In this document: piece after piece, positions 3,874 to 27,243 of the stretch
Position numbering within the stretch: the stretch's first letter is position 1
Layout of the letters: every line of letters starts with the position of its first letter
Assembly: GCA_017853455.1 (NCBI GenBank)
Contig: JAFMJM010000368.1
Span: 1 to 29,639, forward strand
Length of the DNA: 29,639 nucleotides
Direction: 5' to 3'
Origin: Acidimicrobiia bacterium
Lineage (GTDB): Bacteria; Actinomycetota; Acidimicrobiia; IMCC26256; PALSA-555
Notes under the pieces: model-generated
Seen by the model: only the letters and a program-made list of their open reading frames with translations
What the model was told of the DNA's origin: nothing
Database searches by the model: none
Position numbers and translations under genes: made by a program

Positions 3874-4272
3874 TTAGACAGCGACGAAATTGGAGATGAG
3901 ATACGTCGAGGGCGTAGGTGCGGGCACTAAGAAGTAAATGGCATCGAAACCCGTACCCATCCCACCGCTCTCCAGGACGTAGTATTCGCCGTCGAGCACG
4001 TTTGGGGAAGAGGCTTGTGCAAGGCGCCGACCGTTCTGAAACACTTCGATCGTGCGGCCCGTCACCGACGGGTCGTGCACAAACTTCATCGGGGTCTTGA
4101 ACAGGCGATTCACACCGTCGCACACACCTACGAGGCCCACGCCTTTTCTCTCATACGAAACGACACCCGTACCACCCCCGCCGCCGCCTCCACCCCCACC
4201 GCCGTCTCCCGACGGCACGTAGACGGCATCCAGCATTCCTGTAAACGGATTGAAAACATACGTAACAGCCAT
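3874..4272 (-). CDS. Small virion-associated hypothetical protein (132 aa) with an 11-Gly linker
   Basis: FNPFTGMLD N-terminus, poly-Gly written with mixed codons, and an IEVFQNGRR...DGEY module. Adjacent to the next gene (1-nt gap) in the structural block. Confidence 0.7.
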   Translation of the reverse strand: MAVTYVFNPFTGMLDAVYVPSGDGGGGGGGGGGGTGVVSYERKGVGLVGVCDGVNRLFKTPMKFVHDPSVTGRTIEVFQNGRRLAQASSPNVLDGEYYVLESGGMGTGFDAIYFLVPAPTPSTYLISNFVAV

Positions 4273-4572: not shown

Positions 4573-4602
4573 AAAAAACAAAGCGCTCATAGCCCGAAGC
4601 GC
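4573..4602 (-). terminator. Weak terminator-like hairpin
   Basis: Minus strand GCGCT...AGCGC 5-bp stem followed by TTTGTTTTTT, in the spacer after the 4613..5086 stop. Confidence 0.3.
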
Positions 4603-4612
4603 AGTCACGACA

Positions 4613-5086
4613 CTACTTCGTCGCGTTGACCAGGGCTGCAGCGCTGAATGCAATAGCTACAGCGGAAACAACCCCCATCACAACCCCGAACTCCGCGGTT
4701 CGATACCAGACGGGGCCATCATTGAGCTGCTGCTGAAGCGTGTCGAGTCGCTGCTGCATATCCGCGGTTGTCCGCGCATACGCTTCTCGCTCCAACTCGA
4801 GTTGCGCCTTTAATCCATCAAATGCCGCCGCGTCGTACTTCTTCTGATACTCCACGTCCGCTTGCAGCCGAAACGAGTACTGCTGCAAGTAGTTCGCCCA
4901 ACGAAGAGCCGTAGATTGATCGAAAAGTTGTCCCGGAAACGGCGCGCTCTCTCCTTTCTTCAAAGCAACGATTACGTCCTCTCCCGGAGGTACTGCCGTA
5001 ACGGGCTCCGGGCCTTCGGCCCGCGCCGCGCGCGGCGACACCAAAAGAAACAAAAGGACGATCAAAAAGTGCCTTGAGTGCTTCAC
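4613..5086 (-). CDS. Exported coiled-coil protein with a C-terminal transmembrane helix (157 aa); spanin-like candidate
   Basis: Sec-type signal peptide (MKHSRHFLIVLLFLLVSPRAARA|EG), heptad-like middle (LKAQLELEREAYARTTADMQQRLDTLQQQL) and hydrophobic tail (FGVVMGVVSAVAIAFSAAALV). No lipobox Cys. The CDS is well supported; the function is inferred. Confidence 0.6.
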   Translation of the reverse strand: MKHSRHFLIVLLFLLVSPRAARAEGPEPVTAVPPGEDVIVALKKGESAPFPGQLFDQSTALRWANYLQQYSFRLQADVEYQKKYDAAAFDGLKAQLELEREAYARTTADMQQRLDTLQQQLNDGPVWYRTAEFGVVMGVVSAVAIAFSAAALVNATK

Positions 5087-5166: not shown

Positions 5167-6018
5167 TTATTCTTTCTGCATCCACGGCTGCGGAAAGAGA
5201 TTTGGCCAGCGACGAACACAAACCTGTCGCCAAGCCTGGGCAAATCGTTGAATTTCTAAATCCGCTGTCTCAGCTTCGCGCTCCCGCACAAACTTCGCAA
5301 TCGCCGCAGGATTCGTCGTCCAAATAAACGAGGTCTCTGCCTGATGCGGGAGCAAGCTCGCCGCCGCTTCATAAATACGCTTTCGCGCAAGACCCTTCGG
5401 CTCCATGCCGTGAGTACTTATGAACTGCTGGATGTCCTGCTCGACCGCCGTGCAATAGAACGTGTACGCCGTCTGCATCGCCTCTTGAAAAAGGGTCTGC
5501 ATTTCGGGGCGCTCTTCGGAATACCGAGGAGGCTCTACAAAGAAGCCGTAGTGATGCGTGAAGCGCGTCGACTCCTGAGAAGGGCTGCCCTCCTCGTTCC
5601 GGTCCGAGCCCACGTAGTTCCGAATAATCTCGTGGCTGACCCGACGAGAAATGCCGGCAAAGAAGAACGTCATCTTGGCGTGGTAAAGCACGCTGGCGTG
5701 GGGGGTCTCGCCCTCCTGCGTATGCGCGATGTACTCGCGATTGCCGCGACGCCCGGCTTTCTGCCCAAAACTGTCATAACATTTTCGGCCCGCCAACTCG
5801 ACGAGAAGCTCGTTGGCCGTGAGGTCTCGATTTGTGACCTCATCAATTCCTCCATGAGGAAAGAGCGCCATCCATTCGCAGCCTTCGGTTGGAAGACACT
5901 CCGGGCGATGGTCTTTCACCCAGTACATCATGTCTTCCACGCCGAGCGTGGATAGTTGCATCTCCGCAATCGGAAAGATGACGGGGCCGTTACGGAGAAT
6001 TTTAACTTCAGACGCCAT
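5167..6018 (-). CDS. thyX: Flavin-dependent thymidylate synthase family protein (ThyX/Thy1), divergent active site
   Basis: Colinear with mycobacterial-type ThyX as I recall it: LVELAGRKCYDSF, PHASVLYH, GISRRVSHEIIR, SQESTR, LLPHQAET, ADLEIQRFA. GGAG RBS upstream. Confidence 0.88.
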   Translation of the reverse strand: MASEVKILRNGPVIFPIAEMQLSTLGVEDMMYWVKDHRPECLPTEGCEWMALFPHGGIDEVTNRDLTANELLVELAGRKCYDSFGQKAGRRGNREYIAHTQEGETPHASVLYHAKMTFFFAGISRRVSHEIIRNYVGSDRNEEGSPSQESTRFTHHYGFFVEPPRYSEERPEMQTLFQEAMQTAYTFYCTAVEQDIQQFISTHGMEPKGLARKRIYEAAASLLPHQAETSFIWTTNPAAIAKFVREREAETADLEIQRFAQAWRQVCVRRWPNLFPQPWMQKE

Positions 6019-6073
6019 GTGCTGCTCCCTGTCGAATCATTGCAAGGCAGCAAAGCACACTCTATGGCGGAGC

Positions 6074-6388
6074 TCAGATACCCTTCAGCTCTTTGCCTAC
6101 TTTTTTTAGATATTCATTGGCGGCGTCAACATCGCCGGCCAAGTCTTTTTCTGTTTTTACTTCTGCCTCCAAAAGCGCTGATAAGTCTTTATCGCGCTGT
6201 TCTTTGGCCTCTTGTTGCTTTTCCGTAGGACCGCTGGACGGCCCTGGCGGTGGAGAAGGCGGAAGCGGCGGATCGTTCTTTCCAGAAAACCGTCCGCTCT
6301 TTTTAAAGAAGAACTCTCCAACCAAGTGAAACAAGCTCGCCAAACTAGCGAACACCCACTGCGGAAGTCTGAGAAAAAGCTCTTTCAT
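6074..6388 (-). CDS. Small membrane-anchored protein (104 aa): N-terminal hydrophobic segment, Pro-rich linker, charged helix; i-spanin-like candidate
   Basis: Overlaps the holin-like stop by 4 nt. Sequence WVFASLASLFHLVGEFFF, then DPPLPPSPPPGP, then a coiled-coil-like EKQQEAKEQRDKDLSALLEAE. Confidence 0.55.
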   Translation of the reverse strand: MKELFLRLPQWVFASLASLFHLVGEFFFKKSGRFSGKNDPPLPPSPPPGPSSGPTEKQQEAKEQRDKDLSALLEAEVKTEKDLAGDVDAANEYLKKVGKELKGI

Positions 6389-6834
6389 TTTAGATTCCTG
6401 GGTACAGGATTTGGCGGTACAACCACGGGCACAAGCTCATCACCTGCAGGCGGAGGAGAGGGGGGCAAAGAATCATCTGGAAACGGGATGTTCCACTTCT
6501 GCTTGAGAACGCCTTTTATGACACGGTAACCCCAAGCCGCAAACCAGCCCGTGCCAAGTCCATAAAGCGCGCGAGAGACCCACGTGGCTTTCACAACTTC
6601 GGGATACGCAAAAAGGGTCGGTGGGCAGGACAGACAGAACACCAAGCCCAGAAGCGCCGGCAGTGTTGGAAGTACAAACTCGTCCCAAACCCGCTCGGCC
6701 CGCGTGAGCGGTGTCTTATCCGACAGGGTCGGCCAGATCGCCTCGCAAAGACGCCGAATCGCGAATGACGTGACGTAAAGCCCAAGGAGTAAAAACGCCG
6801 TGGGCCAAGTAAGGATATCGTCCAGCGTCGGCAT
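6385..6834 (-). CDS. Holin-like multi-pass membrane protein (149 aa)
   Basis: Three hydrophobic segments (AFLLLGLYVTSFAI; FVLPTLPALLGLVFCLSC; ALYGLGTGWFAAWGY) and a hydrophilic Pro-rich C-tail. AAGGAG RBS; directly downstream of the tail fibres. Confidence 0.6.
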   Translation of the reverse strand: MPTLDDILTWPTAFLLLGLYVTSFAIRRLCEAIWPTLSDKTPLTRAERVWDEFVLPTLPALLGLVFCLSCPPTLFAYPEVVKATWVSRALYGLGTGWFAAWGYRVIKGVLKQKWNIPFPDDSLPPSPPPAGDELVPVVVPPNPVPRNLK

Positions 6835-6845
6835 CGCGTAGCTCC

Positions 6846-8981
6846 TTACTTCACGTAATAGATGGTGAGTTTACCAGAACCACCGCGCCCCCCAGCGGGC
6901 TGTTCTCCCCAAGGAGCGGCGCTACCGCCGCCGCCGCCGGCCCCTGTATTGTCTCCAGCGTGCCCTCCTACCCGCCATGCGGCGACCTCGGTGTGCCCGC
7001 CGCTGGCCCCGTCACCGCCCGGGCCACCTCCGCCACCTCCGCCATTGCCGAGTGTTGACGAGGAGTTTCCCACGCCGGTTGCGCCTCCCCGTGTAGGCAC
7101 GCCCGTTTCGGACACGTTTCCCATACCGCGGGCAATATGCCGATTATTCGGACGGCCTCCGGGTGCGCCCGCGCCCAAAACCGGCCACGTCGTTACCGTA
7201 CGCAGCTCCCAAGGCTCTCCAAGTACCGACCCAAGGATTGAGGAGTCGGTCTGCTCGTCGTACGGCTTCGCGATGCCGCCTATCGGCGCCCCAAAATACG
7301 GATTAGTCGGATCGATATCAAACCCATGCGCTCCCGCGCGCGCACCCAAAAAGCGCATAAGCGTAGCACCAGTTGCCGCAAGTAGCGTATCTCCGCCATC
7401 CGCGCCCGGAATGCGATCTCCTGATCCACCACTTGAAGGATCCGACACACCGCCCGCACCAATGGTCACGCTGTACTCCATCCCGGGCACCACGGTAACT
7501 GCACGCCAAGAACCGTGCGAACCGCCACCGCCACCACCACCCGCCGCCTGCGTCCTATTCGCACCCGATCCAACATACGCACCTCGGCCGCCGGCCGAGC
7601 CGCCGCCGTAGCCGAATGCCATGATCCGTGTCACACCTCGCGGACACGTCCAGGTCATTGGCCCCCCGGTAGCGGGATTGACGGACGAGGTGAATACTTC
7701 GCTGCGCATGTAACTACCGCGAGAATGTTGATAAAGACGCCAACCGCCTACATAAAGAAACGTCGCCCACGGCCCATCCGCCGTAGCCCCATTTCCCAGT
7801 ACAAACAACGGATTGCCTGCCTGGTCCTGCACCGTCACCTTGTACGTCAGCGCCGGGTCAACAAACATTGAAATCATTTCATTGCCGACTACGCCTGCGG
7901 TCACGAGTCGGTATGTGCGGTCTCCCGTAAGCGTCGCAGGAATTGAAATCGTCGCATTACCGACACCTGCTGAAATTGGCCAATTGTTAACGTCTTCCCC
8001 GGTACGCACACTAGGCAGGATTCGCCCAGCACCGGAGAGCTGAATTGGTCCTTCAAGCGTGTCGCCTTGAGACGTCTTTCGAAGCCGCTCATCCGACACC
8101 GTTTGTGAAAGAGAATTTGTAGACTGCACAAGGCGCGTAATCTGACTGTGTAACGTGCCGGCAGGAACATTGTACGGCGTACCGCTAACCGCGGCAGAAC
8201 CAATCTTCGCAGCACCGTTGTTGGTCGAGGCGAGGTCCGATACAATTTTATCAAGCTGCGCTTCGACCGTGCTTTGCGGATTGGTCGTACCATCCGCCCA
8301 AGCGCCCGAACCCGCAAACCCAATCAGAGCTGCACCACCTGCGGACAACAAATCTGCCGATACTTCTTGTGCGCCACGAATCGTAATGTTCGTAAACGCA
8401 TCCACCGGCATGGTCGCCAGATTGCCGCGAACGCCGTAGTACACGCGGTACGTCTTGCCCGCCGGAATAGCCGGTGACACCGTCAGCGTGACGCTCCCCT
8501 CACTAAAGCCGCCGCTGCCGACCGTGCCGCCTGACAAGACCGCAACGCGGCAGCGTTGTGTGCCCGTCGCATCGACAATCTCACGGTCGTTCTCATCGAG
8601 AACCTCGAGGAACGTATTGAGTCCTGCCGCCGTGTTCGGAGTCCCCGAAGCACCTAAGAAGATTCCGGGCCCCGTAAGCGTGATGCTGCTGACGGCGGTC
8701 GTCGCCGTAACATCCGACGTGCGAATCGGAACCGCCAAGTCTCGACGAAAGAGGTCGTCGAGGTAATCGCAGTTCTCCGCCAAGGCATGAATCGGCCGGT
8801 TGGTCGACTTGCTCGTTGCGTCTTCGCCGAACGCGACGAAGTAGGTGCCTGCATTCGGACCGCCAGCTTTCTTGCTGTCATGCAGCGCCGGCGTCCCGGA
8901 GGCAGCGTTGTTGATGTAGTCATAGCCGCTCGAAGGAAGACCACCAAAGTAGGTCGGAACACGCAAACGATGGAAGGGCAT
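6846..8981 (-). CDS. Tail fibre protein with glycine-rich C-terminal domain (711 aa), paralogue of 8998..11394
   Basis: The N-terminal ~290 aa align with the upstream paralogue (MPFHRL.[VI]P.YFGGLP, ALAENCDYLDDL.RRDLA, QLDKIVSDLASTNNGAAKIGS). C-terminal domain WTCPRGVTRIMAFGYGGG...GGRGGSGKLTIYYVK. Confidence 0.8.
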   Translation of the reverse strand: MPFHRLRVPTYFGGLPSSGYDYINNAASGTPALHDSKKAGGPNAGTYFVAFGEDATSKSTNRPIHALAENCDYLDDLFRRDLAVPIRTSDVTATTAVSSITLTGPGIFLGASGTPNTAAGLNTFLEVLDENDREIVDATGTQRCRVAVLSGGTVGSGGFSEGSVTLTVSPAIPAGKTYRVYYGVRGNLATMPVDAFTNITIRGAQEVSADLLSAGGAALIGFAGSGAWADGTTNPQSTVEAQLDKIVSDLASTNNGAAKIGSAAVSGTPYNVPAGTLHSQITRLVQSTNSLSQTVSDERLRKTSQGDTLEGPIQLSGAGRILPSVRTGEDVNNWPISAGVGNATISIPATLTGDRTYRLVTAGVVGNEMISMFVDPALTYKVTVQDQAGNPLFVLGNGATADGPWATFLYVGGWRLYQHSRGSYMRSEVFTSSVNPATGGPMTWTCPRGVTRIMAFGYGGGSAGGRGAYVGSGANRTQAAGGGGGGGSHGSWRAVTVVPGMEYSVTIGAGGVSDPSSGGSGDRIPGADGGDTLLAATGATLMRFLGARAGAHGFDIDPTNPYFGAPIGGIAKPYDEQTDSSILGSVLGEPWELRTVTTWPVLGAGAPGGRPNNRHIARGMGNVSETGVPTRGGATGVGNSSSTLGNGGGGGGGPGGDGASGGHTEVAAWRVGGHAGDNTGAGGGGGSAAPWGEQPAGGRGGSGKLTIYYVK

Positions 8982-12079: not shown

Positions 12080-15000
12080 TCACGTACCTCGATAAACACA
12101 ATAAGAGCCCGCAGGTAGCGTGGAGTCGTAACTCCACGTCACAGCCTGGCCCATACGAATAAAAACACCGCCCCAGTAGATCGGGTTCGCTCGCGCCGTT
12201 GTTGAGCGAATAAAGCAGCGCAACACGTCTCCAGAAGTCACAGCAAACGAGATGGCCTGCTGAAACACAAACGCGCCCTCCGCAAGCGTGAAGGGGATTG
12301 ACGCCGCCTCAGCACCGTTCTTTTCAACAACAAGGCGGTACGTGTTTGGGTTTCCCGTATCTACCGCGGAAATCTCAACATTGACGACAGTGACGGTTCC
12401 CGCAATCTGAATTGTCGAAGGCGTTCCCACCTCAAGGCCTGCGGCCGGCACTACGACTTGGAGTCCGGACACAAAATAAGCAGCCTCGTTTTTGTAGGGG
12501 CTAAGATCGTAGGACAGGACGCTGTCCAGACTCGCCTTGGTACCTGCCGGAAGCGTCGTGCAAAGAGTCCGCACAATGGCGTCTTCGGGGCACAAAGCCG
12601 CGCGGTCATACGCCCAAGCAACGGCGAGCGTTGGGTCCGGAAAAGTCGGGGCCGTCGCTAAGTCCGCGTCGTTATCGTATTGATTGCGCGAACCGCCTCC
12701 GGCGGGACGGTGCTGGTCGTAGATAGGCGCCACGCCCAGTGCGCAAACACCGGTGTCCATGTGCAGAAGCCCGTGCCGATGCACGGCATCGGACGTTGTC
12801 ACCGTTGTATTTCCGAGCTGCGAGCGCACCACAAACAACGGATACGCGTACGTCGGCTTTATCTTCAGGATAAAGCTGCGAACGAAAAGAAGGGCCGACA
12901 AGTTGAACGCGGCGCTATCCACGCGCACCAAAAACTTGAAGAACTTCTCGACTTCGAAGAAGGCGCCTTGCTCCAAGTACCCCTGGAACCATTCTGGGTT
13001 TTTCACCCAGTCGACAACCTCCACGCCCTGCACCAAAGGCGCAAACTGCGTCACAGCGTCGCCTACCGCATACGGCACGCCCGTAGAGGGGTTGGTTTCC
13101 AGAGAGAGCGCGACCGGGAAGGAGTACGACCGGACGATGGTGGTGTCCGCCGCATCCTGAACAAGGATGCGTCCCGTTGTCGCGCTAAAGTCCGTACGAA
13201 TTTCGACAATCGTGCCGGCCTCTTCCGCGAAGGGAAGCCCGAGCAAAATCTGCGTGCCGGCCCGCAAGTTGAACAAGGTCGGTCCGTTGGTGTACGCAAA
13301 CCAAAGCCCTCGAACCGCCGAGAGGTAGTCCACATTGGAAGGCAGCGTGGACAAGTCATCGAGCGTAAATCCGGCAGGAATGCCGAAGTTCGCCTCGATG
13401 CGCGGACGGTTATCGAGGTAACTGGTTTCTGCCCAAAGCTGCGCCGGTGGCAGCTGTCCTTGCCAGATGTCCGGCCCGCCCGTCGCTTCCGGAACAGGGG
13501 TAATAAAACGGAAGCACTTCTGTCCTCGGAACGTATCAATTGCGTAATCGACGTTTCGACGAAGAACCTGCGTGTCGTCTTTCGCGACAATCTTTTCCTG
13601 CAAGAACGGGACATCCGCAATCAATGGATCTAGCGGCACGTACTTCTTGCGGAGCACACCCTTCAAAAAGACAAAGTACCGACTAGAGTCCGATAAGTAC
13701 AAGCCAACGGGCGTTGCGTCCACGGCCAGGCTCAGGGGCGTTGCCGACGAGGCGCCAAGTACACGGCCCGTAACTTCGAGCAGGTTCTGCGTCGCCGTGT
13801 CCAAAACTTCGTACAGGACATAGTCGTCCTGCTCACAGAGACCGTCCCAGAAGTTCAAATCCTTGGACGTCACAGTACCGGCAAGGGACCAGGATGTTCC
13901 TGCGGGAACAGGAAGCGGGTCTAGCAGCGCAAGACGCTGAAAATAAAAAGGATCGGAAGGGTCATCGAGAACACGACCAATCCGATATGCAACGCCGTCA
14001 ATACACAGGAAGTCACCTTGCTTAATGTCGAGGTACTGAAGGCTTCGTTCTGCACGATACGTCTGCGAAGTAACAACGCCTGCTCCCGAAGTGCCTTGAG
14101 GAACGCCATTGACTTGCCCCGCATGAAAGAACGGACAGGTGGTGGTCGACGCAATGCTGAACACGAAAGGCGCATCAATGCGGACGCGTGCGTAATTTCC
14201 GTCCCGCTTGAAAAGCACATGAACCGAAAACCGCTCGTCAATCTGACGCAGGGCTGCCTGTAGCGCATTTTGAAGCGTGTACGGTGTGTGCGTATCCGCT
14301 GGGCCAAGCGCTAGCGTCAAAGGAACATCGAGGCCCACGAGCTGCACATCGACGTGCGTACCGGGCGTAACGGCGGTTCCTGTAAAAAGGATATCTTCCG
14401 ACTCAATACCGCTGTACATCGCGCGGACTGTAGAAAGCTCACGAAGCGCAATGCTCTCTTGCATGAGCAGGTCGTAGTGCATCCAGCGCCGCTGAAACGT
14501 GCGCTGAATATCTCGAAGGCTCTTGGAGTAATCGACCTGCCAGAGCGTTAAGAGTTCGGCAGCAGCAACTTGGGCCAGGCCTTGCCAGAAGGTCGTAATA
14601 CGCTCGGTATCTTCGACGAGCCGCCAAAAGTCCGACAGGTAGTTCCAAATGAACGATACGTCCGGGACAACCCCACGAGCGACGACGGACTCCATACAGT
14701 TTGCCACAAGTTGCGTGGGCTCTGAAAAGAGGACGCCATCGAACACCGTCAGGTCGAATTTAAAGATTCCAGGAACATCGGGATAAAACGTCGGCTTCGG
14801 CGACGTTGGCGTATTGAGTCCGTTCTGCCGAATGTACTTGAACGCCGTATTGCTTGAGAGATTGTCGGGCAGCGTGTAGCTGTCAATACGCACAAAGAAG
14901 CCGTGCGTATCGAGGCCCCTACTCTCAATCCGGTATACTTTGCCGCCGACGACAAGAACGTCGTCCTGCAAGATCGGCTGGATGCCGTCCAAAATACTAA

Positions 15001-16006
15001 GCGAGGTCGAATAGAACCGGTTCGTATACCCAGTCGCAGGATTACCGGGGTACGAGCGGCCATCGACCTCATCGTGAATATACTGGCTTCCTGTGGGCGC
15101 GTCGATAAGGCGCCATTTGTAAAGAAGCGCCGAATCCTGCGGGCTGATGCTCGCCGTGCCATCGAGCTGCAACACGGAGCACATACGCACGGCCTGGTCA
15201 GCACCGGGTTCGGCCTTCGGGGGCAAACCCGGAATGATAAGCCCTGTTCCTAAGTACAGGTGACTTAGCCCCAGGATGCTCGCATCGCCTGGTGTTCCAC
15301 AAACGCTTATCCGTGTCACCGTGTCCGGAGTGACGGCGGCTGCCGACGAGGGAATGACCGGCATGATGTACCGAAGCTGGTGGCCAAGTGCCAAGAGCTC
15401 CGAAGTCTTCGTCACGTAGATGTACACCGCCCCGGTCGTCAAACTGACGGCCAGCCGCACCGTCCAGTACGCGTCTTCGCTAACAAACAGCTGGCTACCA
15501 GGGAGCGTTTGAACCGGCGTGTCTAAGACGAGGTCGCCGCCGGCATCGATGTGGACCGCGCCGCTGTAGGCAATGCCGATTTCGGAAAAGAAAAGACCCG
15601 CACAGGCGCCCATTTCCGAAAACACACCGATGAATGCGTGCCGGTGTTTGATGTCATTGAAATCACTTGGCAGGTCGACAAACTTCGTTGTGACTTCCAG
15701 GGTGAAGTCCGGCGGAACCGGCTTGTCGATATCGAGCGAGGAAACGGTAGGCGAATACTTTGAACCGCCAGAGGCGAGGAATTGGTCGCCCGTATCGTCG
15801 AAATACCGCTGCGCCTCACTCCCCGCTGTTACGACGATTTCCGGATAATTGAAGAGCGCCGCCATCGGGCTTCCGGACTCGATACGATAAATATCGAACG
15901 GCAAAACACCTGAAGGCATCGCGCCGCTGGCAGCTTCGCCGTTGACGCCCCAACGGGAAGTTCCCCACGGCTCGAGCCCGAAGCCTATTGACGCGCTTGT
16001 CGTCAT
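12080..16006 (-). CDS. Large baseplate wedge-like virion protein with a PKD/Ig-like domain (~1308 aa)
   Basis: Track ORF 12080..16105. Start moved to the ATG at 16006 (MTTSASIGFGLEPWG) because it forms a TGATG junction with the upstream gene. Contains PPKAEPGADQ...KWRLIDAPTGS...PTFYPDVPGIFKFDLTVFDG (PKD-like) and a FILKIKPTYAYP wedge-type motif; follows baseplate J. Confidence 0.7.
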   Translation of the reverse strand: MTTSASIGFGLEPWGTSRWGVNGEAASGAMPSGVLPFDIYRIESGSPMAALFNYPEIVVTAGSEAQRYFDDTGDQFLASGGSKYSPTVSSLDIDKPVPPDFTLEVTTKFVDLPSDFNDIKHRHAFIGVFSEMGACAGLFFSEIGIAYSGAVHIDAGGDLVLDTPVQTLPGSQLFVSEDAYWTVRLAVSLTTGAVYIYVTKTSELLALGHQLRYIMPVIPSSAAAVTPDTVTRISVCGTPGDASILGLSHLYLGTGLIIPGLPPKAEPGADQAVRMCSVLQLDGTASISPQDSALLYKWRLIDAPTGSQYIHDEVDGRSYPGNPATGYTNRFYSTSLSILDGIQPILQDDVLVVGGKVYRIESRGLDTHGFFVRIDSYTLPDNLSSNTAFKYIRQNGLNTPTSPKPTFYPDVPGIFKFDLTVFDGVLFSEPTQLVANCMESVVARGVVPDVSFIWNYLSDFWRLVEDTERITTFWQGLAQVAAAELLTLWQVDYSKSLRDIQRTFQRRWMHYDLLMQESIALRELSTVRAMYSGIESEDILFTGTAVTPGTHVDVQLVGLDVPLTLALGPADTHTPYTLQNALQAALRQIDERFSVHVLFKRDGNYARVRIDAPFVFSIASTTTCPFFHAGQVNGVPQGTSGAGVVTSQTYRAERSLQYLDIKQGDFLCIDGVAYRIGRVLDDPSDPFYFQRLALLDPLPVPAGTSWSLAGTVTSKDLNFWDGLCEQDDYVLYEVLDTATQNLLEVTGRVLGASSATPLSLAVDATPVGLYLSDSSRYFVFLKGVLRKKYVPLDPLIADVPFLQEKIVAKDDTQVLRRNVDYAIDTFRGQKCFRFITPVPEATGGPDIWQGQLPPAQLWAETSYLDNRPRIEANFGIPAGFTLDDLSTLPSNVDYLSAVRGLWFAYTNGPTLFNLRAGTQILLGLPFAEEAGTIVEIRTDFSATTGRILVQDAADTTIVRSYSFPVALSLETNPSTGVPYAVGDAVTQFAPLVQGVEVVDWVKNPEWFQGYLEQGAFFEVEKFFKFLVRVDSAAFNLSALLFVRSFILKIKPTYAYPLFVVRSQLGNTTVTTSDAVHRHGLLHMDTGVCALGVAPIYDQHRPAGGGSRNQYDNDADLATAPTFPDPTLAVAWAYDRAALCPEDAIVRTLCTTLPAGTKASLDSVLSYDLSPYKNEAAYFVSGLQVVVPAAGLEVGTPSTIQIAGTVTVVNVEISAVDTGNPNTYRLVVEKNGAEAASIPFTLAEGAFVFQQAISFAVTSGDVLRCFIRSTTARANPIYWGGVFIRMGQAVTWSYDSTLPAGSYCVYRGT

Positions 16007-16353
16007 CAGACGGCCCACTCTCCTACAACAACAAAGCCCGCGTACGCCGGAACTCCGGGAGGTAGTGGCGGCGCTTCTCCAAGATTCGCCGAAGCACTGC
16101 GCCAATACACCGAAATAGGTGACCCGCCGGCGGCCGGCACTACGTACCCCCGAAGAAGATACCGCGGTACGGCGCGTCCCTGGCCAGCACTTGCGCCTAT
16201 GGAAACCGTGGCGGCTACGGAATAGCGGGACGACGTGACCGTAGCAGGCCCCCGAAGATGCGGAATTGTGGCCGCGGCACGTGCAAAGCGAAACGGCGTC
16301 ACCGCTTCCGGAGGAGCCGCATTGGCAATCGAGGTAACGTCAACCGCGGTCAT
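16006..16353 (-). CDS. Hypothetical protein (115 aa), probably virion or fibre-assembly associated
   Basis: Fills the gap between 16361..17305 (7-nt spacer with GAGG) and the wedge gene (TGATG overlap). Confidence 0.6.
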   Translation of the reverse strand: MTAVDVTSIANAAPPEAVTPFRFARAAATIPHLRGPATVTSSRYSVAATVSIGASAGQGRAVPRYLLRGYVVPAAGGSPISVYWRSASANLGEAPPLPPGVPAYAGFVVVGEWAV

Positions 16354-18574: not shown

Positions 18575-21500
18575 CTACGCAAGTCGGCGAGTCACCGACA
18601 AGACATCCGGAATAAACGCCGCCAGCGTACCTAGATTTAAATAATCTTGGCTACGCTCAATTGTGATGGACCGGTCAAAGTTATGAATGACGGCTACAAG
18701 GTCAATGGGACTGTCCACCGACCGGGCGCCGCGATTCATCACAAGCCGTACAAGCTCGCTCGAGTACAAAGAGTCGGTCGGATAAAGTTCCTGAATAAAC
18801 TTTTCGAGGTCAGGAAAAACAACATTTTCCGCCGAGCCGCCTGAGTATGTCAGGGCGAAGCGAACAAAGTAAGGAATCAAGTGCCGCGCCAAGGGGCTGG
18901 AGTTAATGACGCGCTCGGACTCGCTTCGAATGTAATTATCAACGCTCGCCGTAAGGCTGCTTCGAGAATAGCTAAGCTGGATGTTCTGCCCAGAGAGCTG
19001 CGTTGCGTTGGCCGGATCGTCGCTGACACCCACCTCGAGAATGGAGCGAGACAGGTGCAGCTTCGGGCGCTCGACAGGAGAAAACGTCAGGTTCGAGTCT
19101 TCGGTCGTTAGGTAGTAACCGTCCGAGCGGTAGCCCGTGGCGGTCATCTGAAGGTCGGAAGTGATGTTGTATTGGTCGCCCGTGCCTTCTGAAACGAGCT
19201 GCACGTCAAAGTAATACAAGCTCGGAGCCACCGTCTGTTTCGCCATGTCAGTGGAAACAATCCGCTGAAGCCCGGCACGGAGGACTTTGAACTGCTGGTT
19301 GTCGATGCGTGTTGTACCTGAAGGAAACGAGGGCGTGACCTCGATATGCGCAGGATTGGCGTCCAGACCTACGGCCGTAATCGTGTAGGTGCCCTTGTTC
19401 GGCGAATCGTTGTCTTGGTCAATGCCGTTGACCGTCGAAAAACCGAGCAAGCCGTTGGCGCTTGTTGCTGCGCTAGAGCCCCGCACAATGACCGACGCAT
19501 CGGGCGTAAATTGAAGACGGTTCTGCGTATCGAGTGAGCAAATCGTCTGCCCAATGGTCTTGTTGATACGGTCAACCAGCCCTGCACGAGAGATTGCCGT
19601 CGGCGCAACATCGACGACATCGTGCGCAAAGATGATGGTTTTATCGACGCCGCCATTGACACTCAAAACAAGCGTACGTGTCGCAACCGTACTTCCCGCT
19701 ATCTTAAGGTCAATTTGGTCGCCAAGAACCTGCGTACCAACAAGGGGAACGTAATCCACGACGAGAAGGTCCCCTGGCTGAATCCCCTTCTGGATAAAGT
19801 CCGTGGAGCGCGACTCAAACACAACATGCCCAGTCACCGTCGAAAGACCGCCGCCCGTACTTCCGTCTTTGGGCTTCGTACCGCCCGAAACTGCCGGAAT
19901 GCGCTGGTAGCTGTTCGTAGGATCGGGAAAATACCGAAGCACCGAACCGTCGTCTGAAGTGACGGTAAAGCGCGCACCCTTATCCACCTCAAAGCTGGTG
20001 GGGTCTAGGAAGTAACAACGCGCCGTGCCAATCGAGCGGGCGCCTACCTGGATGTGCCGCCCAAACTCCGGATTGAAGTCGTGGGTCGTCCGAAGCGGAT
20101 CGTACTTCGCTTCGTCCCCTGGCGCTGTTCGCTTGTTCGGGAAAACAAGGTCGCCATAAAACCCGACCTGAAGACCGTCGAGAATCTGCACGACGTCAAA
20201 AACCGAATCGAGCGCGGGGCGAAGCGCCGCCCAGCCCCCCGTCGCCGCGACGTTCTCCGAGCGGATGTCCCGGCTGGTCACGTCCCGGTCGTTGTACCCG
20301 AAGAGGTCCAGCATCGCCGTGCTGCCCGTGGCGTACACGGTCACGCGCGGGCCAAGGGGCAAAAGCCCAACGCGCCGGTCGTTGTCCAGCAGAACCGCGA
20401 ACCGCGCTACCGCGCCCGCCGAAGCCAGGTACACGGCGTCGTTGATCTCTTTGACCACGCCCGCCGCACTGAGCGTCCCAGAGAACGTGACCGTGAACGG
20501 AGTCTGGCCTTCCCACCCCAGTTTGAGGGTCTTACCCGCCAAGGCGACCGGGGCCGGAAGCAACTTCGTTATCGCTCCGGTCAGGCCATCTGTAAAATCG
20601 GCTTTCACGCCGCTCGCCGGATTGGCAAAGCTCTGGGACTGGATGTCGACCGGCCGCGCGTAAGGAATCGTCGTTCCCACGGTCTGTCCCGACGTGTCGA
20701 GCAGCTCCACCCGGTCAAGACGGGCAAATGGCAGGGTAAGGCCGCCCTCCTTGTTCAGACGGAAGATGCTGTAGCGCAGCCCATTGGCCGTCGCCGGCAA
20801 CGCACGGTCGACCTGTACCTTTGTAAAGAGCGGCGACGCCACCTGCCGGACGGTGTAATCCCCCTCCACCAAGTCCCCGCCCGAGATGCGCAGCACATCT
20901 CCGACGCTCACGCCGTAAGTGTCGAAGTCCACCCCCGAAGCAGTCTCGACGGTATCCCGGCCCTGCACCGTACGGAGGTCCGACCCAGAAATCTTGGTTT
21001 CCTTGGGCTCATTCAGGTCAATGAGCAGCGTATCTGTGATGCGCCACCGGAAGGTCCCCGGTACTTCCGTGAGGGCTGGCGTGATGGTGAGCACAGGGGA
21101 AATGCCATTCACCTGCTCCACCTTCAGAATCCGGTACGCCCCTGCTATCGGCGGGTCTTGAATTTGAATCGACAAATTCTCGGTCGCCGCATGCTGCAGA
21201 ACAGCGTACGTCGTGTCGCCGACCGAGTAGTCCGTTCCCAAAATGAAGTCGAGGAGCTGGATCGTGGTCGTGCTCTCCGTCCGAAGGCCCGTGCCTTGAA
21301 GAAGGGGGGCGTCATCCACCACCGAGCCCAGGAGTAAGGTATCGGCGTCGAAGTCCGTCCCGCGCACGAACACATCCACCGCGCCACCGACATGCACCTG
21401 GCCATCAGGAATGGCGACCGTCCCCTCCGCCGTGTCCGGATACAGAATGCCTCCGGGAATCCCCGACAGCGTCAGCGTCTTCCGGCGCAACATCCACACG

Positions 21501-22630
21501 GCTTGGGTAACGTCGTAGCTGAACACCTGCTCATGAACGTCCAGCGTGTTCGGCGACACCACCGAACGCACGGTCAGGTCCCGCACAAGAGGCAGCGACC
21601 CAACAGGGTACGCGTTGACGACCGTGAGGACGTACTCGCCCGTGACCGGACCGATGGCGCCAATGATGGCCGTGAAGTCGACCGGGTCCGCGACCTGAAA
21701 CCGCCTCGAGAGAATCTTGCTCTCCCCGTCGGCGAGAACACCGCCTGCTGTGCCCGATGCCAGAAGAGGGCCAAGGCCCCCGCCCGTGAGCACGTCCCGC
21801 TGCATCTGCGTGTCCCCGTACCCAATGACATTGAGGCGGGTGACTTCAGGAAAGTCGCGGGTGATTTTGGCGCCGACGCCGCGGCTTGTAACTAAACTCC
21901 GCTCTGTGAGCTCCTGCTCAACTCGGCCAATAAAGGTAACCGCGTCTTCGTCGGCGACCCCGGACCGAAAGCGGGTCTTGTTGGTAATGCGCGTGGCGCT
22001 CGCCACGTTGGCGATGGTGACCACGCTATCCGGGTCGATGTTGTACTGGTCTCCGGCCGCTTCGGCGACCACGTTGACATCGAAGTAGTAGAGCGCGCCC
22101 TCAAGGTTGAGGAGCATCTCCTCGGTACGGATGCTCTGCACCTCGGTTGGAAAGAAGTGCAGGCCGTCGCGGGACGTGACGAAGTTGGCGGGCGACAGAG
22201 AGATGTTCTGAGGCTGCGCGAAGTACACCCGCACAATTCCTCGAGCGAACTGCCCGACGTTTCGGGTGGCAAAGAGATTGGCCCCCAGCGCGTCGGCTTC
22301 ATCGGTTGTCAGGATGGTCGGATCTTTGAACGACATCCCATTGGACACCCGGTTAATTTCACGAACCACCGGATTCCACAGAAGAATCCCCGCCTTGATC
22401 AACAGGTCGGTAATGGCGTCGCCTTCTTTGGTCGCCATATCCGGAAACTGTTGATTCAGCAGCGTCTGAACAAAGACGCCGATGTCGACCGTGAAGGGGT
22501 CCGTTCCGAGCCTTCGCAAAAGGGGCTGAACAACCTGCACGTCGTACGGCGACCCGGGCGACAGGTCCAACGTAGGGTCGGCTTGCTGAAGGCGCTGAAC
22601 GATAAAAGCCTGAAGGTCTGCAAGAGCCAT
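18575..22630 (-). CDS. Baseplate J-like protein (1351 aa), greatly expanded
   Basis: N-terminal DLSPGS/KEGDAITDLLIKAG, ARGIVRVYF, FDVNVVAEAAGDQYNI, VADEDAVTFIGR and LNVIGYGDTQMQRD are baseplate-J-type motifs. Follows the gp25-like gene. Confidence 0.8.
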   Translation of the reverse strand: MALADLQAFIVQRLQQADPTLDLSPGSPYDVQVVQPLLRRLGTDPFTVDIGVFVQTLLNQQFPDMATKEGDAITDLLIKAGILLWNPVVREINRVSNGMSFKDPTILTTDEADALGANLFATRNVGQFARGIVRVYFAQPQNISLSPANFVTSRDGLHFFPTEVQSIRTEEMLLNLEGALYYFDVNVVAEAAGDQYNIDPDSVVTIANVASATRITNKTRFRSGVADEDAVTFIGRVEQELTERSLVTSRGVGAKITRDFPEVTRLNVIGYGDTQMQRDVLTGGGLGPLLASGTAGGVLADGESKILSRRFQVADPVDFTAIIGAIGPVTGEYVLTVVNAYPVGSLPLVRDLTVRSVVSPNTLDVHEQVFSYDVTQAVWMLRRKTLTLSGIPGGILYPDTAEGTVAIPDGQVHVGGAVDVFVRGTDFDADTLLLGSVVDDAPLLQGTGLRTESTTTIQLLDFILGTDYSVGDTTYAVLQHAATENLSIQIQDPPIAGAYRILKVEQVNGISPVLTITPALTEVPGTFRWRITDTLLIDLNEPKETKISGSDLRTVQGRDTVETASGVDFDTYGVSVGDVLRISGGDLVEGDYTVRQVASPLFTKVQVDRALPATANGLRYSIFRLNKEGGLTLPFARLDRVELLDTSGQTVGTTIPYARPVDIQSQSFANPASGVKADFTDGLTGAITKLLPAPVALAGKTLKLGWEGQTPFTVTFSGTLSAAGVVKEINDAVYLASAGAVARFAVLLDNDRRVGLLPLGPRVTVYATGSTAMLDLFGYNDRDVTSRDIRSENVAATGGWAALRPALDSVFDVVQILDGLQVGFYGDLVFPNKRTAPGDEAKYDPLRTTHDFNPEFGRHIQVGARSIGTARCYFLDPTSFEVDKGARFTVTSDDGSVLRYFPDPTNSYQRIPAVSGGTKPKDGSTGGGLSTVTGHVVFESRSTDFIQKGIQPGDLLVVDYVPLVGTQVLGDQIDLKIAGSTVATRTLVLSVNGGVDKTIIFAHDVVDVAPTAISRAGLVDRINKTIGQTICSLDTQNRLQFTPDASVIVRGSSAATSANGLLGFSTVNGIDQDNDSPNKGTYTITAVGLDANPAHIEVTPSFPSGTTRIDNQQFKVLRAGLQRIVSTDMAKQTVAPSLYYFDVQLVSEGTGDQYNITSDLQMTATGYRSDGYYLTTEDSNLTFSPVERPKLHLSRSILEVGVSDDPANATQLSGQNIQLSYSRSSLTASVDNYIRSESERVINSSPLARHLIPYFVRFALTYSGGSAENVVFPDLEKFIQELYPTDSLYSSELVRLVMNRGARSVDSPIDLVAVIHNFDRSITIERSQDYLNLGTLAAFIPDVLSVTRRLA

Positions 22631-24424: not shown

Positions 24425-25069
24425 TTAGGGACTGATTCCGGCACGTCGGCGAGAACGGGTTTCTTTGACTTGTTGCTCTTGCGCATACTTTTGAATGGGC
24501 CTGTAAGAGTGTCTGTGCAAAGGGCAGACGCCATAGCGCGCCAAGCCCGCTTCGTGCGCCTTGGTGCCGTACCCCACATTTCGGTCGAACCCGTAGTTCG
24601 GAAAATGCTGGTGGTACTGCTTCATAATAAAGTCGCGGTTTACCTTCGCGATCACACTGGCCGCACTGACGGCCGGTACAAGGCTATCGGCCTTCGGAAC
24701 AATCTGAGCCTGCGGCAATTCCGGCAGCGACAAGGCGCCGTCGACAATGACCTCGGCATCCGGGTAACGGGTCAGCATGGATTGAATCGCCGCCGTGTGC
24801 GCCTGCACAAGGGCCGTGGCAACGCCCACCCGGTCAATCTCCGCCGAGCCGGCGGACATCAATGCAAAAGGAACTTGTTGAAGCTCCTTGTAGAGCGCCA
24901 AGCGCGCTTTTGGCGAAAGGGCCTTCGAGTCGGTCAGCCCCTTGGGCGGCTTCCACGAAGAGGGAACCGCCACCGCGCAAACGAGAAGGGGACCGGCCCA
25001 GGCGCCGTATCCCACTTCGTCAGTACCAATGATGTATGTATCTTCTTTTTTAGGCCGGCGTGTTGACAT
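24425..25069 (-). CDS. rnhB: Ribonuclease HII
   Basis: IIGTDEVGYGAWAGP, LTDSKALS, VIVDG, KADSLVPAVSAASVIAKVNRD, YGFDRNVGYGT and GVCPLHRHSY are all hallmark RNase HII blocks. Confidence 0.93.
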   Translation of the reverse strand: MSTRRPKKEDTYIIGTDEVGYGAWAGPLLVCAVAVPSSWKPPKGLTDSKALSPKARLALYKELQQVPFALMSAGSAEIDRVGVATALVQAHTAAIQSMLTRYPDAEVIVDGALSLPELPQAQIVPKADSLVPAVSAASVIAKVNRDFIMKQYHQHFPNYGFDRNVGYGTKAHEAGLARYGVCPLHRHSYRPIQKYAQEQQVKETRSRRRAGISP

Positions 25070-26475: not shown

Positions 26476-27243
26476 TTACACCATCAAGTACGGGTTTTGA
26501 CTGAAGTAATCCGAAACATCTGCTGCCAAGACTCCCTGCGCACGGCGCTTTGCTTCTTCGTACGCCGTCTGCGGGTCGAGCCCAGGCTCCAGACGTAACC
26601 ATGCATAGAGCACAAGCCACGCGCCGTCACCATGACCAAAATACATATGGGCGAGCACCCCCGGATCGGGAGGTGTCTTACATGCCTCCACGCGCGAAAG
26701 CGCGAGCGTTACTTTCTCCCCGCTTTGTGCCAGCCCCGGCCACTTCTGAGGAATCGTCAGGGGGTTGGCCGCCGCACTTGTCAACCAATTGATTAACTGA
26801 CAAGTGGCTTCCGCTTGTTCAGGTGTGGGCAAAAGATACTTCTTGGCCGGACGTTGCGATGCCGACCAAGGCACGTTGTCCAAGATACCGGTCCACGGAC
26901 CGCCCGGATGAGCCAGTCCAGGCTCGTAGGGATTTACAACTTCAATGCCCACGCTCACGCCGTTGTGCTGTGAGGCGTGCCACATCTCGTCCGATTGCAA
27001 ATCGGCGTGCTGGTAAATTGTTCCGTCCGCATCGGCGATGAAGTGCACGCCAAGACCGCGCTGACGAAGAACATCGACCGTGTCGGACCAAGAGCGCGTC
27101 ACGGTTTCATGCACGACAACTTCGGTGACCGCGCGGTTTGGCTTTACTTGGTTTTTGAAACGAAAGACGCCAGGGTCTTTGAAGTTTCGAATCGCCACGC
27201 CAGCAGGACCCTCAAGTTCTTGTCCACCAACAATGATGCCCAT
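26476..27243 (-). CDS. N-acetylmuramoyl-L-alanine amidase (Amidase_2-type endolysin, 255 aa)
   Basis: VVVHET (Zn His), GVHFIADADGTIYQ, WHA...NGVSVGIEVVN (catalytic Glu), VLAH...GD (Zn His/Asp). GGAGG RBS. Confidence 0.85.
   Translation of the reverse strand: MGIIVGGQELEGPAGVAIRNFKDPGVFRFKNQVKPNRAVTEVVVHETVTRSWSDTVDVLRQRGLGVHFIADADGTIYQHADLQSDEMWHASQHNGVSVGIEVVNPYEPGLAHPGGPWTGILDNVPWSASQRPAKKYLLPTPEQAEATCQLINWLTSAAANPLTIPQKWPGLAQSGEKVTLALSRVEACKTPPDPGVLAHMYFGHGDGAWLVLYAWLRLEPGLDPQTAYEEAKRRAQGVLAADVSDYFSQNPYLMV

Follow-up and report, generated by a model that had tools for sequence, protein, structure and literature searches.

A thyX-like gene in phage DNA represents a clade with altered residues at the FAD- and dUMP-phosphate positions of ThyX

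The DNA analyzed here is a stretch of 29,639 nucleotides (the window; contig JAFMJM010000368.1 of assembly GCA_017853455.1, assigned to an Acidimicrobiia bacterium), and the gene in question is a thyX-like coding sequence on its minus strand (5167..6018), which encodes a protein of 283 amino acids (aa). It is a member of a large and so far undescribed branch of the ThyX family, the flavin-dependent thymidylate synthases. Throughout this branch the residues expected to touch the flavin ring and the uracil are kept, and several of those expected to hold the phosphates of flavin adenine dinucleotide (FAD) and of deoxyuridine monophosphate (dUMP) are replaced. It appears reasonably probable from the sequences that the protein is an active ThyX-type dUMP C5-methylase with remodelled FAD- and dUMP-phosphate pockets; most likely, the members of the clade would still make thymidylate (dTMP).

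Replaced and retained residues of the ThyX-like protein

The coding sequence runs from an ATG start to a stop codon at 5167-5169, and a Shine-Dalgarno-like GGGAG is located 6 nt 5' of the ATG (6025..6029, minus strand). With an intact frame and this ribosome-binding site, the gene does not look decayed, as a preliminary description made from the window alone had already stated. The sole Pfam match of the protein is Thy1 (PF02511; E 1.3e-27, 97.2 bits, gathering cut-off 24.8); Thymidylat_synt (PF00303) did not match, and PHROG 85 'thymidylate synthase' did. The nearest solved structures by sequence are ThyX of Corynebacterium glutamicum (Cg; 2.9e-20) and of Mycobacterium tuberculosis (Mtb; 7e-18). 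An AlphaFold2 model, for which a 140-sequence alignment was the input, has a mean predicted local distance difference test score of 95, with residues ~131-150 alone lower (67-85), and its top Foldseek match is Mtb ThyX (probability 1.00, TM-score ~0.8 normalised to the target). The assignment of the protein to the Thy1/ThyX fold, to which a predicted model contributes, is secure.

HMMER alignments to Mtb ThyX served to map the residues; the numbers of the Mtb chain are the native ones, as checked against PMC6514825. Paired residue numbers refer to Thermotoga maritima (Tm) and Mtb ThyX, in this order; single numbers of canonical residues are those of Tm unless Mtb is named. The ligands of these residues have been described in canonical enzymes. 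Within FAD, the AMP phosphate, the flavin mononucleotide (FMN) phosphate and the ribityl receive hydrogen bonds from the RHR residues, from Mtb S71 and from Mtb R190; the isoalloxazine is bound by the first Arg of the motif (PMC6514825). R78 faces N1/C2=O of the flavin when the enzyme is reduced, and H53 stacks on flavin or folate (PMC11940539). dUMP is activated by R174 and the transfer is assisted by S88, R90 and Y91 (PMC8316439), and Mtb R87, Q106, R107 and R172 hold the phosphate of dUMP (PMC9571937).

It can be seen that, first, the flavin/uracil core is kept: H53/H69 is H107 of the 283-aa protein, R78/R95 is R133, S88/S105 is S150, R90/R107 is R152 and R174/R199 is R247. The retention of these five residues had been proposed in the preliminary description and is confirmed by the map. 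Also kept are T55/S71 (S109), N163/N188 (N236) and two contacts of dUMP, R74/R87 (R125) and E86/Q103 (Q148). Secondly, E58/E74 is changed to Y112, H79/H96 to N134, R80/R97 to Y135, Y91/Y108 to F153, R147/R172 to A220 and R165/R190 to A238. Among the FAD phosphate and ribityl ligands, H79, R80 and R165 are therefore replaced (N134, Y135, A238), and Ser/Thr-55 alone is kept (S109). Two of the dUMP 5'-phosphate ligands, Mtb R87 (R125) and Mtb R107 (R152), are kept; the other two, Mtb Q106 and Mtb R172, have become T151 and A220. As judged from the alignments, the clade keeps every contact to the isoalloxazine and the uracil, and its replacements fall on the FAD-phosphate clamp (at H79, R80 and R165) and on one half of the clamp of the dUMP phosphate (R147 and Mtb Q106). 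The substitutions described earlier (E58 to Y, RHR to RNY with an insert of ~7 residues, R147 to A, NxR to NPA) are all real by this map, and an altered cofactor or phosphate pocket was a fair inference from them, because the changed residues are ligands of the FAD phosphate and ribityl and of the dUMP phosphate (PMC6514825, PMC9571937).

The changes were then located on the minus strand and compared in an alignment of 58 members of the clade (representatives at ≤50% identity) with the 82 nearest canonical representatives. The peptide HASVLYH (residues 107-113; 5680..5700) keeps H53 and the FAD-binding Ser and has Tyr in place of E58; this Tyr occurs in 58/58 clade members, and Glu in 76/82 canonical sequences. 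The altered ThyX signature is contained in SRRVSHEIIRNYVGSDRNEEGSPSQESTRF (residues 124-153; 5560..5649), in which R78 is kept, H79 is Asn and R80 is Tyr, followed by an acidic insert of 6-7 aa with R140 and by the kept S88-x-R90. The insert after Y135 comprises 7 residues compared with Mtb and Cg ThyX and 6 compared with most near canonical relatives, and the signature loop ahead of the conserved S-Q is 11 residues long, versus 4-5 in canonical ThyX. A new R126 adjoins the dUMP-phosphate Arg R125 in the same segment. Within KRIYEAAASLLP (residues 213-224; 5347..5382) Tm R147/Mtb R172 is A220 and Mtb R168 is Y216. The last segment, TTNPAAIAKFVREREAETADLEI (residues 234-256; 5251..5319), keeps N163 and R174 (R247), carries A238 at R165, A241 at Mtb R193 and K242 at Mtb H194, and has a new E246. 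All peptides quoted in the preliminary description are present, namely HASVLYH, IIRNYVGSDRNEEGSPSQESTRF (131-153), EAAASLLP (217-224) and TNPAAIAKFVRER (235-247).

Further polar or cationic losses, in Mtb numbering, are R168 to Y216, K/R182 to S230, R193 to A241, H194 to K242 and Q106 to T151. Conversely, several residues are gained specifically in the clade: R126 (S/A in canonical sequences), R140, E143 and G144 within the insert, E149, T151 (canonical Q), H156, G158, K242 (canonical H/N) and E246. Ahead of the Thy1 core there is also an N-terminal insert, HRPECLP...LFPH (residues 37-55; 5854..5910, minus strand), which would lie roughly where canonical ThyX has the folate loop. In the alignment of close homologues H37, R38, P39, C41, P43, L52, P54 and H55 of this insert are invariant. 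The columns of P39, C41, L52 and P54 are gapped in most canonical sequences, and the insert, which is specific to the crown of the clade, is missing from the basal members P0146 and P0171.

Conservation of the changes across the clade

A search of 5.8 billion proteins gave 832 matches, the best 120 of which are 55-72% identical to the query; more than 100 clusters formed at 90% identity lie in this same range. When representatives at 50% identity were searched exhaustively, 46 were found at E ≤1e-30, after which the values drop to those of canonical ThyX at ~1e-23 and weaker. The core residues H53, R78, S88, R90 and R174 are kept in 58/58 clade representatives, down to ~35% identity. E58, R80, R147 and R165 are all lost in 55 of the 58, the remaining three keeping R147 alone, and all four are kept in 72/82 canonical sequences. 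The replacements are themselves fixed or nearly so (Y112 58/58, Y135 54/58, K242 57/58, E246 58/58; R140 46/58). At position 220 all 82 canonical sequences have R, and 52/58 clade members have S or A. Among 24 close homologues, residues 124-158 are nearly invariant and vary at 131, 138, 141, 145 and 153 only. The change of Y91 to F, also listed in the preliminary description, is true as a substitution but carries no weight, because F is frequent on both sides (16/82 canonical sequences, including Cg ThyX, and 33/58 clade members).

In a FastTree phylogeny all 58 clade members fall on one side of a branch with a support of 99 and a stem of ~0.85 substitutions/site. Basal members carry only part of the changes: the signature insert is missing from P0171, and R147 persists in P0146, P0163 and P0165. 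The variant signature thus arose stepwise. As the aligned sequences indicate, the substitutions define a monophyletic clade and are conserved clade-wide, and are not chance or private changes. Nor do they represent ordinary variation of phage ThyX, a question that the preliminary description had left to a family alignment; canonical relatives, as well as the two ThyX proteins inspected from cultured phages (Pan1 and R5C), keep E58, R80, R147 and R165. In the literature searched (ThyX-like, phage paralogue, FMN, divergent ThyX) no description of a variant ThyX clade was found.

Inteins are present in the clade at three sites in conserved motifs, K79/C80, A108/S109 and P146/S147. The last site is inside the altered loop, at the same position as an intein in one canonical ThyX. 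Inteins are usually located in conserved, functionally important motifs, and their presence, like the pattern of conservation, speaks for a working protein. The long forms of the protein do not represent domain fusions, since 29/29 of those of at least 497 aa were explained by intein insertions, and frames of 374-504 aa that might have been fusions to MazG were explained by in-frame upstream read-through in high-GC DNA.

The interpretation that we prefer, an active enzyme with a remodelled pocket, would work as follows. Reduced flavin would be stacked on dUMP, and the methylene would be taken onto flavin N5 and passed to uracil C5, yielding dTMP for phage DNA. It is at the periphery of the active site that the protein departs from textbook ThyX. 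The clamp of the FAD pyrophosphate, ribityl and AMP (H79, R80, R165 and probably E58) has been replaced together with R147, one of two arginines anchoring the dUMP 5'-phosphate, and the active-site loop is 6 residues longer. Conserved charged residues have been added, namely R126 adjoining the phosphate Arg that is left, R140 within the insert, K242 and E246. The phosphate pocket would be remodelled, not lost, and R126, R140 and K242 would compensate for the replaced residues.

Genomic context and alternative explanations

The window is the whole of one contig (C8) of a metagenome-assembled genome (MAG) of 2.65 Mb and 370 contigs, and consists of phage DNA, with genes for tail-fibre proteins, a Gly-rich tail protein, Amidase_2 and RNase HII. 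Its content of guanine plus cytosine (GC) is 57.6%, versus 73.3% in the contig of the same MAG (G000:C342, L002) that carries a canonical tandem ThyX; this latter protein is of host type, 551 aa long, with a canonical RHR in its second half. The difference in GC makes binning or host assignment doubtful: the window contig may have been put in the wrong bin, or the GC content of the phage may lie far below that of this host. The IMG/VR database contained 39 clade loci on contigs of ~6.5-266 kb, mostly 70-200 kb; among 185,579 species genomes scanned by pattern, 6 variant loci were found, all in MAGs. The clade is almost entirely phage-borne and uncultured.

The survey of gene content covered 29 IMG/VR records, of which 17 have a completeness of 90% or more. 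In 29/29 records the variant was the sole Thy1 match, and ThyA (PF00303) was absent from 29/29. A dCTP-deaminase-like gene was found in 8/29 records and a dCMP-deaminase-like gene in 13/29, either of them in 18/29. A deoxynucleoside monophosphate (dNMP) kinase of the T4-gp1 type was found in 13/29, in 8 of these within ~3 kb of the variant, and one viral record contains a contiguous kinase-dcd-thyX-like block. PRA-PH/MazG-like genes (4/29) and dUTPase genes (3/29, at the same loci as dcd) were not consistently present. An all-against-all BLAST of ~980 open reading frames from 46 loci showed no conserved partner, no neighbour being common to more than 7 loci, and a Pfam census of 120 neighbour representatives showed only scattered DNA-metabolism families.

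Some further loci were encountered in this survey. In the IMG/VR record of L010 (G001:C1:43709-45983) a dCMP-deaminase match is split in two pieces within one 468-aa frame beside a dNMP kinase, and this frame probably carries an intein or other insertion. In the genome of L005, a Gemmatimonadaceae MAG, the contig with the variant copy has a second and shorter Thy1 match ~10 kb away (G030:C12:41695-42210; model positions 43-190, 203-aa frame), and a canonical ThyX is encoded elsewhere in the MAG. A protein atlas contained a cluster of 276 viral proteins of ~504 aa in which a PRA-PH/MazG-like pyrophosphohydrolase is fused to Thy1. The fusion was not seen among close relatives of the variant clade; it ties ThyX directly to dNTP-to-dNMP conversion in other phages.

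Several observations weigh against an active enzyme that makes dTMP in a remodelled pocket, and they are considered here together with the alternatives that they may favour. First, the ThyX signature R-H-R-x7-S-x-R is absent, the protein having R-N-Y, a longer loop and S-T-R, with the first Arg and S-x-R kept; and the score against the NCBIfam thyX equivalog TIGR02170 is 72.5 bits, below the curated cut-off of 87.9. The broken signature, the low score and the loss of several ligand-binding arginines would fit a non-catalytic pseudo-enzyme that binds nucleotides or regulates the host thymidylate synthase, a possibility raised in the preliminary description. The five core positions are nevertheless kept in all clade representatives, inteins reside in the conserved motifs, and complete phage genomes with genes for dUMP-producing enzymes have the variant as their sole thymidylate-synthase-like gene. 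In addition, a chromosomal copy exists in a bacterium in which no other thymidylate synthase was found (see below). A pseudo-enzyme therefore seems very improbable.

Second, six cationic positions are lost (Mtb R97, R168, R172, K/R182, R190 and R193), three are gained and several acidic residues are added. Because of this net cationic loss and the added acidic residues, the pocket may, as far as sequence can indicate, bind something less anionic than FAD plus NADPH. One possibility is that the chemistry from dUMP to dTMP is the same and that the cofactor system has changed, with a flavin at the level of FMN or riboflavin or a re-posed FAD, and/or with electrons from some reductant that is not NADPH. 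Such a change, which corresponds to the altered cofactor of the preliminary description, is a sub-variant of the explanation that we prefer, in which the FAD-phosphate clamp would have been abandoned and not compensated, and we regard it as rather unlikely. It is consistent with the reported roles of the replaced residues, the RHR motif and Mtb R190, in binding the AMP phosphate, the FMN phosphate and the ribityl (PMC6514825). Two of the replaced residues become Tyr (Y112, Y135), the R165 site (position 238) is a small hydrophobic residue (V/A/M) in the clade, the pocket has fewer cationic and more acidic residues, and the isoalloxazine-binding R78 is untouched. On the other hand, Mtb S71, the other reported FAD-phosphate ligand, is kept in 57/58 clade members, the new conserved R140 and K242 could assume phosphate contacts, and no flavin-related or dedicated reductase gene was detected among the 120 neighbouring proteins scanned.

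Compensation within the pocket, as the remodelled enzyme would need it, was considered at the level of single positions. R140 and K242 are candidates to replace R80 and R165. Among the 140 aligned sequences, a cationic residue is present only at position 220 in 85, only at 126 in 51, at neither in 4 and at both in 0, and the three clade members with R147 retained have N or G at 126. This exclusivity resembles a relocated phosphate-binding charge, as a hint only; on the tree the swap amounts to one well-supported independent contrast, or to three when unsupported branches are counted.

Third, canonical thymidylate kinase is near-absent from the surveyed viral records (2/29, weak matches), and this scarcity fits dTMP and a modified product equally well. 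The enzyme might form a different C5 product, e.g. 5-hydroxymethyl-dUMP by attack of water on the exocyclic methylene intermediate in place of reduction, or might act on another pyrimidine nucleotide (UMP or dCMP), and feed a modified base into phage DNA. Such chemistry is accessible, since 5-hydroxymethyl-dUMP can be trapped from the ThyX reaction. The active-site loop and the N-terminal region near the folate site are remodelled clade-wide, the T4-gp1-type dNMP kinase is frequently linked, and canonical thymidylate kinase is nearly absent. The carriers are, moreover, phages with large genomes of 80-265 kb, and modified bases are common in large phages (PMC7824862). Against a different product or substrate, R174 and R90, which read O2, N3 and O4 of the uracil, are invariant, so that dCMP is an unlikely substrate; the linked deaminases yield dUMP or dUTP; and neither in 29/29 phage records nor in the single bacterial MAG was another thymidylate synthase found, and a cell needs dTMP. 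Neither a glycosyltransferase nor an hmU-kinase-like (5-hydroxymethyluracil kinase) or other hypermodification family was seen among the 25 of 36 neighbourhood families listed. Kinases of the T4-gp1 type also occur in phages with ordinary DNA. The proposal of another nucleobase or of base modification made in the preliminary description thus found no pointer in these data, and a different product or substrate appears improbable. Taken together, a clade working unlike every studied ThyX, either by a different flavin form or reductant or by making a non-thymine C5 product such as 5-hydroxymethyl-dUMP, is possible, though on the unlikely side.

Finally, the bacterial evidence for dTMP comes from a single MAG. 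In this bacterial MAG of 11.4 Mb, a copy in ordinary chromosomal surroundings (L008:9998-10876) has the full variant signature (HSSVLYH, RHYVGADRTEEGSPSQESTRY, RKRIYEAAAQLLP, NPMA). Its neighbours encode a hybrid histidine kinase, an ECF sigma factor, an acyl-CoA dehydrogenase and HtpG, and the GC content at third codon positions of the variant is similar to theirs. Neither ThyA nor another Thy1 protein or canonical ThyX was found in a search of this genome. Among 60 relatives of the MAG, 35 have ThyA and 12 have ThyX, never both (47 with exactly one), and 13/60 show no thymidylate synthase; about 20% of such absences would accordingly be an assembly gap or incompleteness. If the cell relies on the variant alone, its dTMP must come from the variant, subject to incompleteness of the MAG, and this further weakens a role in base modification. 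For the canonical activity, in which a homotetramer with bound FAD converts dUMP to dTMP with CH2-THF and NADPH, the support is indirect and comes from the sole-gene status of the variant in the 29 phage records and in this MAG. The variant is rare in cells (1/401 genomes in the phylum of the carrier MAG, 1/301 in the family of the Polyangiaceae carrier). Moreover, no cultured-phage GenBank record was more than 33% identical to the 283-aa protein, and none was found to carry the variant signature.

In the window itself, the thyX-like gene is located among tail-fibre genes, unlike the DNA-metabolism modules of most related phages. It is flanked on the minus strand by small proteins without family matches (4613-5086 and 6074-6834), of 157 aa with an N-terminal hydrophobic segment, of 104 aa, and of 149 aa with multiple hydrophobic segments and PPSPPP runs. 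Past the next downstream gene (4613-5086) a terminator-like hairpin followed by a T-run (4583..4602, minus strand) may mark the end of the transcription unit, a weak hint; promoter and terminator scans around the thyX-like gene gave nothing above chance (3 terminator-like sites versus 4.1 expected). Further genes on the same strand include a 132-aa frame with an unbroken run of 13 glycines and no family match (3874-4272), and a 711-aa protein (6846-8981) with a C-terminal Gly_rich_2 domain (PF21722), long Gly runs and a weak match to a tail-fibre-assembly PHROG. Two proteins of 1341 and 1351 aa (12080-16105 and 18575-22630), probably novel parts of the tail or baseplate, show only sub-threshold Pfam hints of Phage_attach and Baseplate_J and match no PHROG. 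A phage RNase HII (24425-25069, E 2.8e-34) and a candidate Amidase_2 endolysin (26476-27243) are encoded on the minus strand as well, the latter ~20 kb away from the lysis-like genes adjoining thyX.

Comparison with known systems

ThyX is defined in textbooks and annotation rules by RHR-x7-S-x-R, and it is a drug target with a FAD/dUMP pocket regarded as invariant. The large natural clade described here departs from this signature and keeps only the residues that touch isoalloxazine and uracil, and annotation pipelines label its genes 'thymidylate synthase (FAD)' with the difference unflagged. If active, the clade would be a natural experiment on the contacts that are dispensable for flavin-mediated methylene transfer, and would represent a second way of holding the cofactor. 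If its cofactor or product differs, it would constitute a new enzyme activity in phage nucleotide metabolism.

The best sequence and structure matches are Mtb ThyX (PDB 2AF6, 3GWC) and Cg ThyX (3FNN, 3GE9). The variant shares with them the long form, a helical insert between the signature loop and the R147 helix, and the residues H53, R78, S88, R90, R174, R74(Tm)/R87(Mtb) and N163. It differs from them by an identity of only ~25%, by the changes of Mtb E74 to Y and of R95-H96-R97 to R-N-Y, by a 7-residue insert before S102, by the loss of R172, R190, R168, R182 and R193, by the gain of R126, R140, K242 and E246, and by the extra insert 37-55. Canonical phage ThyX proteins (the mycobacteriophage 'ThyX-like thymidylate synthase', Pan1, R5C) resemble the variant in being phage-encoded, in residing in DNA-metabolism modules and in hosting inteins. 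ThyX of Pseudanabaena phage Pan1 and of Dinoroseobacter phage R5C, the two best matches from cultured phages, aligns with the variant over nearly the whole length, including the N-terminus. However, these two have the canonical motifs HGSVLEH, RHRVG...SQESQRY, AAR..LP and N-x-R, and all canonical phage ThyX proteins are less than 33% identical to the variant.

A neofunctionalised Thy1 fold is known from polyoxin biosynthesis, where PolB (PDB 4P5A/4P5B), a paralogue of ThyX, methylates UMP and dUMP. FAD binding and the RHR motif are retained in PolB. Its match to the variant is far weaker (E 1.2e-15, mixed profile), and the enzyme belongs to a Streptomyces antibiotic gene cluster, not to phages; the window is a phage contig and the related loci lie in phage DNA-metabolism modules, with no nucleoside-antibiotic cluster of the PolB type. 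As a precedent, PolB indicates that the choice of substrate can be retuned by the loops that surround the active site of ThyX (PMC5954106). The dCMP hydroxymethylase of phage T4 and the dUMP hydroxymethylase of the SPO1 type, members of the ThyA family, offer a functional analogy only, that of a thymidylate synthase homologue repurposed for base modification; their fold is unrelated to that of the variant, and no PF00303 match was present in the 29 phage records. To our knowledge, modified phage DNA arising through thymidylate-synthase homologues is so far limited to such ThyA-type enzymes. A non-thymine product of the present clade, if true, would therefore add a flavin-dependent route to modified phage DNA.

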